In this document: piece after piece, positions 8,671-18,665 of the stretch
How positions within the stretch are numbered: the stretch's first letter is position 1
Layout: every line of letters starts with the position of its first letter
Source of the DNA: a virus
Virus record (IMG/VR): IMGVR_UViG_3300021431_000535
Reading direction: 5' to 3' (one strand)
DNA: 19,264 bases
The notes under the pieces: generated by a model
The model's database searches: none
Told to the model about the DNA's origin: nothing
Seen by the model: only the letters and a program-made list of their open reading frames with translations
Translations under genes and position numbers: made by a program

Positions 8671-9477
8671 ATGAAATTTGCAGTACCTTTTAGATATAAT
8701 TTTAAATATTTCGATGAAAAAAACATTTAGATTAATATTAATTATAAATATAGTGTAAAAGAATTAACTGATTTTGTAGCATCTTATAGACAATATAGGA
8801 TTAATTTTATTATAAATGAAGATTTAACTTCTGAAGATTATGAATTAATAACGGTATTATTAAAAGAGTATAATAATATTGTTTTATGTTTTCCGGTGTA
8901 TTCTTTCCCTATTGAAGAATTATTAAATAAATATAACATTCCGCATTATTATAATGAGTTTATAAAAGATTGGGATCGTTTCCATGGATTCTTATCTTTA
9001 AATGTAACTGATATTTTTATTGCAGAAGAATTATGTTTTAATTTACGAAATTGTTCAATTCAGGCAAAGAAAAAAGGAAAAAAACTTCGTAGTTATTGTA
9101 ATGTTTGTGAATCTTCTTGGGAAGAGGGCAGATCTTTAAAATCTTTTTTCATTAGACCTGAAGATATAGAGATATATAGTCAATATATTGATACTTTTGA
9201 ATTTTTTCCTTTTAATAGAAAACTGGATGCAACTCGTTTAAATACATTGTATAAAGTATATGCTATTGATAAAAAATGGTTTGGGCAATTAAATGAAATT
9301 ATTGATGGCTATGAAGGTGATGAAGATAGCCGTTTTATTATTCCTCGTTTTGGGGAAGTCCGACCAAATTGTAAAAAGAAATGTTTAGAATCAGGAACAT
9401 GTTATATTTGTGATAGAATTATAGATTTAAGTAAAACTTTAAAAGACAAGAATATTATGGTTACAGTTGATAAATAA
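8671..9477 (+). CDS. hypothetical protein (268 aa) with one in-frame TAG at codon 20 (8728-8730), read through under the proposed TAG reassignment
   Basis: Strong RBS AAAGGAGAAAAT before ATG 8671. The frame is continuous with track ORF 8896..9477; the only interruption is a single TAG, which is where track ORF 8527..8730 stops. Confidence 0.55.
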
Positions 9478-9524
9478 TAAAATTTTTTATATAATATATA
9501 TAAAGATAAGAAAGGTTATAAATT

Positions 9525-9818
9525 ATGAAAAACTATACAAGAACTCCATCTAATTATGTTATTACCCGTAAACAGAAGCGTTATATCGCTAGGCTTAAAA
9601 TGGAACAGGAGCAAAAAGCAGAAACATTAAAAAACATTCAGGAAGCAAAAGAGAAATCTAAAAAAGAAAATAAAAAAGTTAATCCTGAAAAAGGAGAAAA
9701 GTTATTTAAACATAGCTATTCAGTTTTTAAACCGTTGATGCAGGGAAAATTTGTAGCTTATACAAAAGATCCTAGTTACTTTGCTAAAAATTGGCGGAGT
9801 TATGCGGAGGAGAGATAA
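9525..9818 (+). CDS. hypothetical basic protein (97 aa)
   Basis: ORF with RBS AAGAAAGG, preceded by a TATATAAT promoter near 9488-9495. Confidence 0.45.
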   Translation: MKNYTRTPSNYVITRKQKRYIARLKMEQEQKAETLKNIQEAKEKSKKENKKVNPEKGEKLFKHSYSVFKPLMQGKFVAYTKDPSYFAKNWRSYAEER

Positions 9819-10136
9819 ATGGCGGCAAGAGGAACAGAGTCAAAAAATATTATTTTCGCAAAATTACAGGAGGTATTTCCAAACGCATTTTGGGAAGATC
9901 AGGGTAAAATTTTAAGAATACCATTGGATGAAAATGGCGCAAGAGTAGAAGTAAAAGTAACTTTGACAGCAGCAAAAAATAATCTCAAAGATGAAAATGC
10001 AGTTAGTGCTTTTAGTGATACTAATAGTTTTTCTTTAAACGATACGCCAAATAAATCAAACGATATAAAAAGTCTTGAACCTACGCAGGAAGAAAAAGAG
10101 AACGTTAGTAAGCTATTAGCTGCATTAAATTTATAA
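9819..10136 (+). CDS. hypothetical protein (105 aa)
   Basis: ORF whose start overlaps the previous stop (TAAATG). Confidence 0.45.
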   Translation: MAARGTESKNIIFAKLQEVFPNAFWEDQGKILRIPLDENGARVEVKVTLTAAKNNLKDENAVSAFSDTNSFSLNDTPNKSNDIKSLEPTQEEKENVSKLLAALNL

Positions 10137-10143
10137 TAAAAAA

Positions 10144-10431
10144 ATGAGTCATTTATTAAAATATAGTGAGTGGGAATCTCCAACTGGTTGGCATTGTACA
10201 GATATATCAGATTTTGCACATGGTAGCGGATTTTGGTGGCATGTTCCACGTATGCTAGATATTTCTCTTACAGATTATATATTACTTTTAAAAGATGAGT
10301 TTAATGCCATTAATTTTTCTTATGATATAGATAAGAATGTTCTATTATGGAAATGGCCAACTTATCAAGATTGTCATAAATTTGTACTTTTTGTAAATAG
10401 AGAAGCAAGAAAACGTAAATTTTTTATATAA
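10144..10431 (+). CDS. hypothetical Trp-rich protein (95 aa)
   Basis: ORF directly after the previous gene. Confidence 0.45.
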   Translation: MSHLLKYSEWESPTGWHCTDISDFAHGSGFWWHVPRMLDISLTDYILLLKDEFNAINFSYDIDKNVLLWKWPTYQDCHKFVLFVNREARKRKFFI

Positions 10432-10532
10432 ATAAATACTACCTGGCAGGCAAAAATGAATGAAAAAGAATCTGATATAAAAATGCGGTTATTGGGTAGG
10501 CTACAAAATAAAACTGGGAATATGTAGCATAA

Positions 10533-10606
10533 GGGCCTTTAGCTCAGTTGGTTAGAGCATCCGGCTCATAACCGGACGGTCCTGGGTTCGAGTCCCAGAA
10601 GGCCCA
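10533..10606 (+). tRNA. tRNA-Met (anticodon CAT; could equally be an Ile2/lysidine-type tRNA)
   Basis: Cloverleaf with 7-bp acceptor GGGCCTT/AAGGCCC, D arm AGCTCAGTTGGTTAGAGC, anticodon loop CTCATAA, T loop GGTTCGAGTCC. Confidence 0.85.
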
Positions 10607-10626
10607 TTAAAAGGAGGAATAAAATA

Positions 10627-17059: not shown

Positions 17060-17432
17060 ATTAGCTTCCATAAGCAAGCTTTTCTGTCTGGTGAAATGAT
17101 ATATCCGCAGACGTTTTTCTCTTTATCGTAAAAAGAGTTATTATAAATAAGATATACCTTATTTATAATAAAAACAATATACTTAATATAATTAAATTTT
17201 CTGAAACCCCGTTTTTATATTGAAAACTATAGTATATGATAGATCTTAGAATCAGCTAAGTAAAAAATGAAAATATAAAAATATTCATATTTTTTTTAAT
17301 AACAAGAGGAGAGGAAGAGGATTAAGTAGTTCAATTTTTGAACGAAGATGGCAACGTAAACCAACTTTTAGTGTTTCAGCGTTAAGTATTGTTATATTAA
17401 AAATATGAATATAGGGGTTTATTTTATTACAA

Positions 17433-17504
17433 GGCCCAGTAGTCAAGTGGTTAAGACGTCGGTCTCTAAAATCGAAGACTGGGGTTCAATTCCCCGGTGG
17501 GCTA
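17433..17504 (+). tRNA. amber-suppressor tRNA (anticodon CTA, reads UAG)
   Basis: D arm TAGTCAAGTGGTTAAGAC, anticodon stem TCGGT/ATCGA with loop CTCTAAA (anticodon C17466-T-A17468), T arm TGGGGTTCAATTCCCCG, acceptor GGCCCAG/GTGGGCT with one G/G mismatch at 7:66. Confidence 0.75.
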
Positions 17505-17609
17505 GTTTAAAGGTAGTTACAGCAAATTTTTAATTTAAATTTTTAATTTAAAAATATATAGGATAAAATGTTTTCTAATAAAAAATTTTCAATAAACTAC
17601 CTTGTATAT

Positions 17610-17698
17610 GGTCGTATGGCAGAGTTTGGTTTAATGCATTGTCCTGCTAAGACAACGACGGGGAAACCCGTCCGGTGGTTCAAATCCACCTGCGACCG
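17610..17698 (+). tRNA. tRNA-Ser (anticodon GCT)
   Basis: Acceptor GGTCGTA/TGCGACC, anticodon stem TTGTC/GACAA with loop CTGCTAA, long variable arm ACGGGGAAACCCGT, T arm GGTGGTTCAAATCCACC. Confidence 0.85.
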
Positions 17699-17869
17699 CT
17701 AAAGACTTATACTGCAATTTTATTTAATATAACAGACAAGAAAATCTAAATTAAACTGGCGAGTCCTTTCCTATAAGCTTTCATTTATTTTTAAGATTTT
17801 TTCTATTTCTTAGGCTTGGAATCGACTTTCTTAAATGAAGAAAAATGAAAAAATTAGAGTCTTGTTTTT

Positions 17870-17955
17870 GGTGCGGATCTGGCCGGATGAAGACGTAGTC
17901 TTGAAAACTATCGACCGTGATGAGCGGTTTGGGGGTTCGAGTCCCTCCCGCATCG
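17870..17955 (+). tRNA. tRNA-Ser (anticodon TGA)
   Basis: Acceptor GGTGCGG/CCGCATC, anticodon stem GTAGT/ACTAT with loop CTTGAAA, long variable arm, T arm GGGGGTTCGAGTCCCTC. The D arm is irregular. Confidence 0.7.
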
Positions 17956-17994
17956 TTTAGTAATAAAATAAAACGAAAAGGAGATTTTTTATAT

Positions 17995-18534
17995 ATGAAC
18001 GAACCGAGACTTAAAATTTCCCCACCCTGGATAACTTATATTAATAAGCTTTAGGCTCTTTTTGATCCTGATCCTCAAATTGCTTTTAACGTGAAGTATG
18101 ATAGCGGAGCTCCTGAGGTAATTCTAGCAACAAACAATGGAGATAAAGCAACAGCATTAACAAAGCTTATTCCTACTGTCAAAGAATTTGGAAATATTGT
18201 ACTTAAAATTACGATTGATGGACCTTTTACCAATAAAGCTTTTCCTACTTTAACTGATCTTTTTAATACTGCTTTTGAAAAGAATCCAGTTTATGCTTAT
18301 TGCGTTGAACCAGCTCAAGAAGGATATTGGTTTTTTGATTTTGCATATGTTGTTTTTAAAAATTGCGTTGTTCAATTCTTTAATGATAATTTAAATGACG
18401 CTCATGGCGTAATTAGTACACTTTATCAAGACATTGCTGCTGAAATTTTTGAAGAAGCTAATTTACCAAGTGTACATTATTGTACAGATATTGAACAAGG
18501 AAAACTTGGTAAGCCACTTGGAGAATGGCCGTAA
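17995..18534 (+). CDS. hypothetical protein (179 aa) with one in-frame TAG at codon 20 (18052-18054), read through under the proposed TAG reassignment
   Basis: RBS AAAGGAG before ATG 17995. In frame with track ORF 18091..18534; the only break is a single TAG. Verified codon by codon. Confidence 0.55.
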
Positions 18535-18665
18535 TGGATAAAGATCAAAAATCTTTAATGAAGCATTCAGATAATTTTAAATCATTTGAATAGCGATTAG
18601 AAAAAGAGTATCAAAAAGCCGTAAAAAATGGTTTTAAAGGAACAAAAGAAGAATATTTTCAAATA
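18534..18665 (+). CDS. hypothetical small protein (43 aa) with an in-frame TAG at codon 20 (18591-18593)
   Basis: ATG overlaps the upstream TAA (TAATGG). RBS GGAGAA 8 nt upstream. Ends in TAA at 18663-18665. Confidence 0.35.

Follow-up and report, generated by a model that had tools for sequence, protein, structure and literature searches.

TAG as a sense codon, probably for glutamate, in a large rumen phage that carries a tRNA-Glu-like amber suppressor

We analyzed a 19,264-nt stretch of viral DNA (IMG/VR virus record IMGVR_UViG_3300021431_000535; hereafter, the window), which consists of a phage tRNA array flanked by tRNA/RNA-repair-type genes and comes from a large phage, probably of rumen Bacillota, whose related contigs measure 110–200 kb. 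In this phage, TAG is a rare sense codon and not a terminator, with 13 such codons in five genes on the (+) strand. The array includes an amber suppressor tRNA(CUA) with the body of a Bacillota tRNA-Glu. Since this suppressor is a remodelled tRNA-Glu and since TAGs stand where related phages have glutamate (Glu, E), TAG is probably translated as glutamate and not as glutamine (Gln, Q).

TAG codons in the window

When open reading frames (ORFs) were re-called with TAA and TGA as the sole stops, so that TAG was read as sense, the ORF content of the (+) strand rose from 4069 to 5320 amino acids. The (+) strand genes end in TAA (20 of 24) or TGA (4 of 24) and never in TAG (0 of 24). There are 13 TAGs in frame, all of them in five genes, and 79 and 70 TAGs in the other two frames. 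These codons are clearly clustered in a subset of genes. Specifically, the 19 TAG-free (+) strand genes make up 3381 of 4170 codons, in which ~10.5 TAGs would be expected and none was seen (Poisson P ~3e-5). A GGAG-type ribosome-binding site precedes each of the five TAG-bearing genes. Five further TAGs, in two genes on the (−) strand, are probably sense codons as well. The TAG-bearing genes are as follows.

8671..9477, (+) strand: gene of unassigned function, 268 amino acids; one sense TAG, at 8728
11743..12198, (+) strand: NlpC/P60 cell-wall hydrolase whose N terminus has a signal or anchor segment; TAGs at 11755, 11866, 11971, 11986, 12022 and 12127
16378..16809, (+) strand: HNH homing endonuclease ORF inside a tRNA-Leu intron; TAGs at 16387, 16525, 16675 and 16687
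17995..18534, (+) strand: conserved gene of unassigned function, 179 amino acids; sense TAG at 18052
18534..18680, (+) strand: small gene, 48 amino acids, translationally coupled to the upstream gene through a TAATG overlap; sense TAG at 18591
228..488, (−) strand: small Cys-rich ORF, start probably ATG 431; stop under genetic code 11 at TAG 290–288; TAGs at 290, 278, 257 and 242
38..262, (−) strand: small ORF; code 11 stop at TAG 100–98 (ORF 98–262)

The original prediction, made from this DNA alone, was that some genes use TAG as a sense codon and that no (+) strand gene ends in it. Both statements hold: the five genes that it named were recovered, and domain matches (NlpC/P60 and HNH) cross TAGs. 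Two details needed correction. The fifth gene, which had been given as 18534–18665, exists but runs on to an in-frame TGA at 18678–18680. Likewise, the one TAG-ending ORF that had been counted (288..488 on the (−) strand) is present, but under code 11 there are two, the other being 98–262.

NlpC/P60 is the gene richest in TAG, with six in 151 codons and the first at codon 5, and the Pfam NLPC_P60 match to its product (residues 49–133, 8e-11) crosses four of them. The matches of the intron HNH product to phrog_10822 (residues 4–95, 1.9e-33) and phrog_14736 (residues 10–135, 4.5e-30) also cross TAGs, the first of which is codon 4; the intron has its own near-consensus sigma-70 promoter at 16324–16352. 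The TAG at 8728 is common to at least 10 related loci, and its column holds E in 49 and Q in 8 of 60 partner loci. Orthologues of the gene at 17995..18534 were found in 33 IMG/VR loci, in which the column of TAG 18052 holds TAG, Q or E. For the small gene downstream of it, a comparison is provided by L002, a syntenic region on a 112.8-kb rumen contig with its own tRNA(CTA): L002 has GAA opposite the TAG at 18591 and a TAG of its own opposite a GAG of the window.

The two small (−) strand ORFs are divergently transcribed, and their homologues in L002 and in a further relative, L047, extend past their code 11 TAG ends. Judged from these alignments, the ORF at 228..488 probably reads through four TAGs into a 20-codon acidic tail: the TAG that follows "WQ" is common to L002, whose tail past the TAG is homologous to an uninterrupted L047 protein. 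The ORF at 38..262 is probably read through to position 38, although on weak evidence, and would then encode 74 amino acids, near the 80 of its L047 homologue.

Two candidates around these genes were rejected. The 98-amino-acid protein encoded upstream of NlpC/P60 was considered as a holin and ruled out, being strongly basic and lacking any hydrophobic segment. An upstream extension of the papain gene to 10456 was dropped, as both of its apparent in-frame TAGs lie within or adjoin a tRNA-Met gene (10533–10606).

The suppressor tRNA and the amino acid at TAG

The suppressor and, for comparison, two ordinary tRNAs of the phage are as follows.

17433..17504, (+) strand: amber suppressor tRNA(CUA), its body that of a Bacillota tRNA-Glu (ARAGORN, Rfam, cloverleaf)
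15309..15381, (+) strand: ordinary phage tRNA-Glu(UUC) (ARAGORN)
19116..19188, (+) strand: ordinary phage tRNA-Gln(UUG), with U1-A72, G73, a 9-nt D loop and a 5-nt variable loop

The suppressor, already proposed as a CTA tRNA in the original prediction, is real: both ARAGORN and Rfam detect it (Rfam tRNA score 56.6 bits, E 4.7e-10), and it folds as a normal cloverleaf. It begins with GGCCCAGTAGTCAAGTGGTTAAGAC and has G1.U72, A73, a 3-bp D stem, a 10-nt D loop (AAGTGGTTAA) and a 4-nt variable loop (AGAC), so that all four Gln features of the tRNA at 19116..19188 are absent from it. Its anticodon loop, CTCTAAA, differs from the CTCTCAA loop of tRNA-Glu(CUC) at a single base (C36 to A), and the tRNA contains the acceptor/D-arm motif of tRNA-Glu (GGCCC..T.GTCAAG.GG.TAAGAC) together with the 4-nt variable loop. 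A scan for the motif GGCCCNNTNGTCAAGNGGNTAAGAC in one genome per bacterial species returned at least 120 stretches, all but one in Bacillota-named records; among the matches listed, every tRNA that ARAGORN could classify (116 of 116) was a tRNA-Glu, 103 with UUC and 13 with CUC.

We then scored the suppressor with isotype hidden Markov models (HMMs) derived, with the anticodon masked, from 738 bacterial tRNAs of the motif-match loci. The window suppressor scored 38.0 bits for Glu and 21.3 bits for the next isotype, a margin of 16.7 bits, and the suppressor of a related locus, L026, scored 42.9 versus 22.7. Among control tRNAs from phages, calls with a margin of at least 15 bits were correct in 79 of 83 cases, and Glu calls with a margin of at least 10 bits were right in 10 of 10. 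Together, structure, motif and isotype score indicate that the suppressor descends from a Bacillota-type tRNA-Glu.

Two other approaches to its origin were set aside. HMMs built from the phages' own tRNAs gave an ambiguous result (Asp 33, Glu 31), which the bacterial-tRNA HMMs and the motif scan settled, and blastn against annotated phage tRNAs found weak partial matches to tRNA-Gln (window) and tRNA-Trp (L026) that were driven by the anticodon and T arm and are uninformative. A pattern scan of IMG/VR for the suppressor returned two loci, both in our set beforehand, and a longer pattern, made up of the acceptor, the D arm and the anticodon loop, had no match in JGI metagenome contigs.

Suppressors with a CUA anticodon also occur in 30 related non-redundant loci. 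A second suppressor type, present in L003, L047, L008, L035, L179, L228, L231, L232 and L242, has the D arm GTGGAGYGGyTTAACAC and a 5-nt variable loop; it fits no isotype model, its acceptor stem is tRNA-Glu-like in some of these loci, and the TAG sites there are E- and K-rich. Other odd suppressor-like tRNAs were seen in L031–L034, L022, L025 and L015. In some relatives, 89-nt class-II tRNA(CTA) genes score as Leu-like by HMM, yet the TAG sites there look like Gln; a 97-nt tRNA(TCA) and a 90-nt tRNA(TTA) occur among the relatives, too.

The amino acid at TAG was estimated from protein alignments. Relatives were gathered from IMG/VR, ENA, Logan and JGI, with contigs of up to 200 kb, which gave 113 non-redundant loci with 941 TAG sites in 504 orthologous clusters. 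For each cluster, we noted the residue of the nearest other locus that has an ordinary codon there (the nearest residue) and compared these residues with empirical substitution tables from the same alignments. A column was called conserved if it was covered by 4 or more loci and a single residue occupied it in 75% or more of them. Grouping the loci by suppressor tRNA alone gave two sets.

Seven loci with Glu-type suppressors (the window, L024, L026, L174, L187, L191 and L249): 81 clusters; nearest residue E in 30, Q in 12 and D in 6
Twelve loci with other suppressors: 56 clusters; nearest residue Q in 18 and E in 6

The pattern in the Glu-type loci is rich in Glu. By maximum likelihood (ML), E was the best assignment there, with Q 27.7 log units lower, and the conserved TAG columns were E in 11 cases and Q in none. 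In the loci with other suppressors, the same procedure favored Q, with E 55 log units lower, and the conserved columns were Q in five cases and E in one. The two sets differ by Fisher test for both the conserved columns (p = 0.00097) and the nearest residues (p = 0.00034), and the E result holds whichever single locus is removed. Mutation bias was ruled out as the source of the E excess: GAG and CAG are about equally common in the window (47 and 52), so the supply of mutations does not explain it.

Narrower comparisons gave the same answer. In the lineage of the window (the window, L039 and L173), the nearest residues were E in 13 cases and Q in 4 (+14.9 log units for E), and the TAGs in the papain gene of L039 stand opposite GAA, GAG, GAG, CAA and GAG of the window. 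The 16 TAG columns of NlpC/P60 from the window and four relatives, compared with a further 46 homologues from databases, probably bacterial for the most part, favored E over Q by 7.9 log units. A CW_7/metallo-beta-lactamase protein of the Glu-type phage L187 has nine TAGs and ~75 homologues of less than 50% identity. Its TAG columns hold E 31, K 17, A 13; Y 60; D 55, E 11, Q 0; K 22, E 14; R 47, E 12; E 45, D 8, Q 1; E 33, P 18; and A 45, which sums to +20.7 log units for E. Close relatives of this protein alternate between E and a caller-assigned "Q" at the TAG columns; that "Q" is probably TAG, and the alternation would then match synonymous exchange between TAG and GAR.

A route from tRNA to amino acid can be proposed. 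The suppressor would have originated from a Bacillota-type tRNA-Glu by the change at position 36, and host glutamyl-tRNA synthetase (GluRS) would charge it with glutamate, given that it retains the acceptor stem, D arm and 4-nt variable loop of tRNA-Glu. GatCAB selects Glu-tRNA(Gln) by U1-A72 and rejects tRNA-Glu via an extra D-loop base, U20B (PMC2811023). Because the suppressor is without U1-A72 and keeps the extra D-loop base, it would not be amidated; under these rules it would stay glutamylated, and TAG would be translated as Glu. Full-length product of the TAG-bearing genes would further need enough suppressor to outcompete host release factor 1. With TAG at codon 5 of NlpC/P60 (and five more) and at codon 4 of the HNH ORF, the output of these genes would be tied to expression of the tRNA array. 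Here we infer both the charging enzyme and any role in timing.

As to timing, the original prediction had early genes avoiding TAG and late or lysis genes needing the suppressor, for which we found weak support. NlpC/P60 is indeed the TAG-richest gene, and a TAG-rich secreted NlpC/P60 fits the published idea of suppressor-gated lysis functions (10.1101/2021.08.26.457843). However, the HNH ORF, three genes without functional annotation and probably the (−) strand genes also bear TAG, and the window is without structural genes.

Several observations weigh against glutamate. The window by itself has too few informative sites to decide: its own sites gave E 5, Q 2 and K 2, with E ahead of Q by only 3.5 log units, and two of its TAGs lie at conserved G and S columns, which are uninformative either way. 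In the Glu-type loci, Q makes up 15% of the nearest partners versus the ~2% expected for a true Glu codon; the nearest-residue measure is ambiguous for L187 (E 12, Q 7) and L191 (E 2, Q 3). In the relatives L003 and L040, NlpC/P60 has TAGs at two kinds of conserved column, Q and E. Such Q-aligned sites possibly reflect dual charging, sites inherited from an ancestor that read TAG as Gln, or transitions from CAG to TAG where a position tolerates them. The TAG sites of related phages are not fully independent of one another. On the tRNA side, the isotype HMMs are crude (52% of phage control tRNAs correct overall), and the genome scan was seeded with the motif of the suppressor itself. The anticodon contributes to GluRS identity, and that of the suppressor is CUA and not YUC, so that charging by GluRS is only an inference; a host glutaminyl-tRNA synthetase (GlnRS), if present, could charge a CUA tRNA with a weak 1–72 pair.

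A rival reading is the standard phage code 15, in which TAG is Gln and to which the original prediction had likened the pattern. Under this code, the suppressor would be charged directly by host GlnRS, or by a non-discriminating GluRS followed by GatCAB, and its Glu-like body would be irrelevant. Gln is the sole meaning of TAG reported for phages so far (10.1101/2021.08.26.457843; PMC9523058; PMC11210395), ML pooled over all relatives gave Gln, and Q is over-represented among Glu-type partners (12 of 81); moreover, TAG 18052 of the window stands opposite Q in nine loci and E in seven, and the wobble pair G1.U72 makes for a weak start of the acceptor stem, a requirement of GlnRS and GatCAB substrates. 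The pooled estimate was set aside because the pool mixes two suppressor classes: after the split, Q wins only in the phages with other suppressors. Moreover, no conserved TAG column of the Glu-type loci is Q, acidic columns of the L187 protein (e.g., the one with D 55 and E 11) carry TAG, and the suppressor lacks U1-A72, G73 and the 9-nt D loop and has a U20B-type extra base of the sort that GatCAB rejects. Given a tRNA-Glu body, TAGs at Glu positions that include conserved columns, and a method that does return Gln for relatives with other suppressors, we regard Gln as an unlikely meaning of TAG in the window and depart here from the code-15-like reading of the original prediction.

A mixed decoding, in which some of the suppressor pool carries Glu and some carries Gln, or a recent switch from a Gln-type to a Glu-type suppressor, with TAG confined to sites that tolerate both, seems improbable to us. 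It would account for the mixture of E and Q partners in L187 and L191 and for the TAGs of L003 and L040 at both kinds of conserved column, and a switch inside the family must in any case have occurred, since related phages clearly use Gln. However, the conserved TAG columns in loci defined as Glu-type by their tRNA are never Q, and among close relatives of the L187 protein the only alternation is between E and the caller-assigned "Q" that is probably TAG. Glutamate, inserted through the tRNA-Glu-derived suppressor, remains our preferred reading.

The TAG-interrupted genes are also conserved, and their alignments point to purifying selection and not to decay. Orthologues of the same genes in L002 carry TAGs at ~50% protein identity, without any interruption by TAA or TGA, and some TAG positions are common to the window and L002. 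TAGs are kept in the same genes in L002, L039, L040 and L047, and the nearest relative, L039, has five of the six NlpC/P60 TAGs of the window. The strain L043 is 99.2% identical to the window; its 121 differences leave all TAGs in place, and downstream of TAG 8728 the changes are mostly synonymous. Since L043 is unchanged at every TAG, the strain comparison gives no direct synonymous evidence. A view of the interrupted frames as decaying pseudogenes with an incidental tRNA(CUA), a doubt raised along with the original prediction, would explain the stop codons seen under code 11 and nothing more. No frameshifts were found, TAG is the sole interrupter in the window and in its relatives L002, L039 and L047, domain matches run across the TAGs, synonymous change predominates after the TAG in 8671–9477, and TAGs recur in the same genes and positions of relatives that are ~50% identical, so these genes are not pseudogenes; we consider decay extremely improbable. 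We likewise dismiss pyrrolysine as next to impossible, since it is suggested only by the automatic ARAGORN label "tRNA-Pyl", which is given to any CUA anticodon, whereas the suppressor has standard tRNA-Glu architecture, the TAG columns align with Glu, Gln and Lys over many unrelated proteins, and a scan of 16 window proteins against Pfam found no pyl family, with no pylS or pylBCD in the window.

Public gene calls for the same phage are mixed (L043/L045 versus L044/L046), with code 11 used on some contigs and code 15 on others, so that the database proteins for this phage are inconsistent; under code 11, NlpC/P60 is absent and the 268-amino-acid gene is truncated. As the public calls already read TAG as Q on some contigs, recoding itself is a recognized phenomenon.

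The tRNA array, its neighbors and related phages

ARAGORN found 15 tRNAs on the (+) strand of the window. Besides the genes described above, the window contains the following.

558..8657, (+) strand: TAG-free block of 11 genes, including those for an SprT-like protein, HAD_SAK_2, a major-vault-protein-like protein and Thg1
16169..16972, (+) strand: tRNA-Leu(UAA) with a 719-nt intron in the anticodon loop (ARAGORN intron option)

The joined exons of the latter fold as tRNA-Leu(taa), with the split after anticodon-loop position 36, and no Rfam group I intron model matches the intron. Neighbors of the array within the window also include a papain-like peptidase and the secreted NlpC/P60. The tRNA/RNA-repair-type module at 1023–6115, which adjoins the array, encodes the SprT-like protein, HAD_SAK_2 ("Swiss Army Knife" RNA repair) and the tRNA-His guanylyltransferase Thg1; a tRNA-His(GUG) gene lies at 18921–18995. 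An 825-amino-acid protein (2788–5265) has major-vault-protein shoulder and vault-repeat domains (PF11978, 5.9e-25; PF17795, 2e-7) and no PHROG match.

Six near-consensus promoters with an extended −10 element (TTGAyA, 17 nt, TG-TATAAT) lie on the (+) strand at 12195, 12579, 13471, 13897, 15578 and 16324; they have a longer A/T-rich motif in common and precede tRNA groups and small genes. Three non-coding stretches between tRNA genes (13164–13570, 14142–14941 and 15016–15308) have a G+C content of 0.36–0.41 versus ~0.29 elsewhere, with no substantial ORF and no Rfam match, and could be further introns or new structured RNAs. A class-II tRNA at 17869–17955 with the anticodon loop CTTGAAA, which is tRNA-Ser(UGA), was missed by ARAGORN and shows only as a sub-threshold Rfam match to tRNA-Sec (34.9 bits); L047 has a tRNA-Ser(tga) at the syntenic position. 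At 18736–18845 there is a full-length, sub-threshold match to the Y RNA-like YrlA (RF02553, 35.2 bits, E 6e-5) with a tRNA-like 3′ end, and a DUF2828/DUF7788 protein is encoded a few kilobases downstream in L002 and L047.

No described phage is closely related: when the whole window was compared by megablast with GenBank phages, short pieces of tRNA were the only matches. Several relatives come from sheep or cattle rumen assemblies, going by contig names, and the tRNA types together with the best NlpC/P60 matches suggest that the host is probably a member of the Bacillota such as Lachnospiraceae.

Comparison with known recoded systems

Gut and rumen phages that recode TAG and carry suppressor tRNAs have been described for the crAss-like, Lak, Agate, Sapphire, Jade, Garnet and Topaz groups (Borges et al., 10.1101/2021.08.26.457843; Peters et al., PMC9523058). 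The phage of the window resembles them in its animal-gut source, low G+C content, phage-borne tRNA(CUA), restriction of TAG to a subset of genes and its absence as a terminator, as well as in having a lysis-type enzyme as the most recoded gene. Genome size and cattle or sheep rumen origin further resemble the Firmicutes-infecting Agate, Sapphire and Jade clades, which is a likeness only and does not assign the phage to any of them. In contrast to these phages, the suppressor of the window is a tRNA-Glu derivative, and TAG aligns with Glu. The recodings reported for phages are TAG to Gln and TGA to Trp, ascribed to mischarging by GlnRS and tryptophanyl-tRNA synthetase (10.1101/2021.08.26.457843); phage reports in the literature searched gave only TAG as Gln and TGA as Trp (or Gly), and none gave TAG as Glu.

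The suppressor shares with Bacillota tRNA-Glu(UUC/CUC) the acceptor stem GGCCC, the D arm GTCAAGNGGTTAAGAC, the 4-nt variable loop and A73, and differs in its CUA anticodon, G1.U72 in place of G1-C72, a G7/G66 mismatch and a diverged anticodon stem. Amber suppressors based on E. coli tRNA-Glu (Kleina, Normanly, Miller and Abelson, 1990) reportedly insert glutamate and some Gln in a host that contains GlnRS. They likewise combine a tRNA-Glu body with CUA but are engineered, whereas the suppressor of the window is natural and phage-borne.

If TAG is indeed Glu, a stop reassigned to glutamate would be seen here for the first time in any virus or prokaryotic system. It would follow that the meaning of a recoded stop can switch inside one phage family, and we lean, with some reserve, toward repeated capture of the amber codon within one family of large rumen phages by suppressors of different tRNA origin, Glu-reading in the lineage of the window and Gln-reading in its sisters. 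A Glu code would also define a second route to recoding, one that relies on GluRS and on a single changed base in a tRNA-Glu of host type and is open to the many Bacillota lacking GlnRS. Related genomes in which one codon has two meanings would offer a natural case that bears on the evolution of codon reassignment and on barriers to phage recombination, and a natural, GluRS-compatible amber suppressor could serve as a tool for Gram-positive hosts.

Among catalogued codes, the Blepharisma code (NCBI table 15) is alike in that TAG is sense and TAA and TGA are stops, but it differs in the amino acid, as the TAG columns of this clade favor Glu over Gln. If TAG is Glu, gene callers that apply table 15 (prodigal-gv, Pharokka-gv) would put Q for E at every TAG, and public proteins for this phage already have Q at TAG sites. 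In the nuclear code of peritrich ciliates (NCBI table 30), TAA and TAG encode Glu and TGA is the only stop. To our knowledge, a change from stop to Glu is otherwise found only in that code. The likeness lies in the reassignment of a stop to glutamate through a tRNA-Glu-derived suppressor; however, the peritrich code is eukaryotic, genome-wide and includes TAA, whereas TAA is the main stop in the window (20 of 24) and the code is viral, in a presumably standard-code host. In kind, this is a recoded phage with a suppressor tRNA, as known before; what is probably new is that TAG is read as Glu by means of a suppressor derived from tRNA-Glu.

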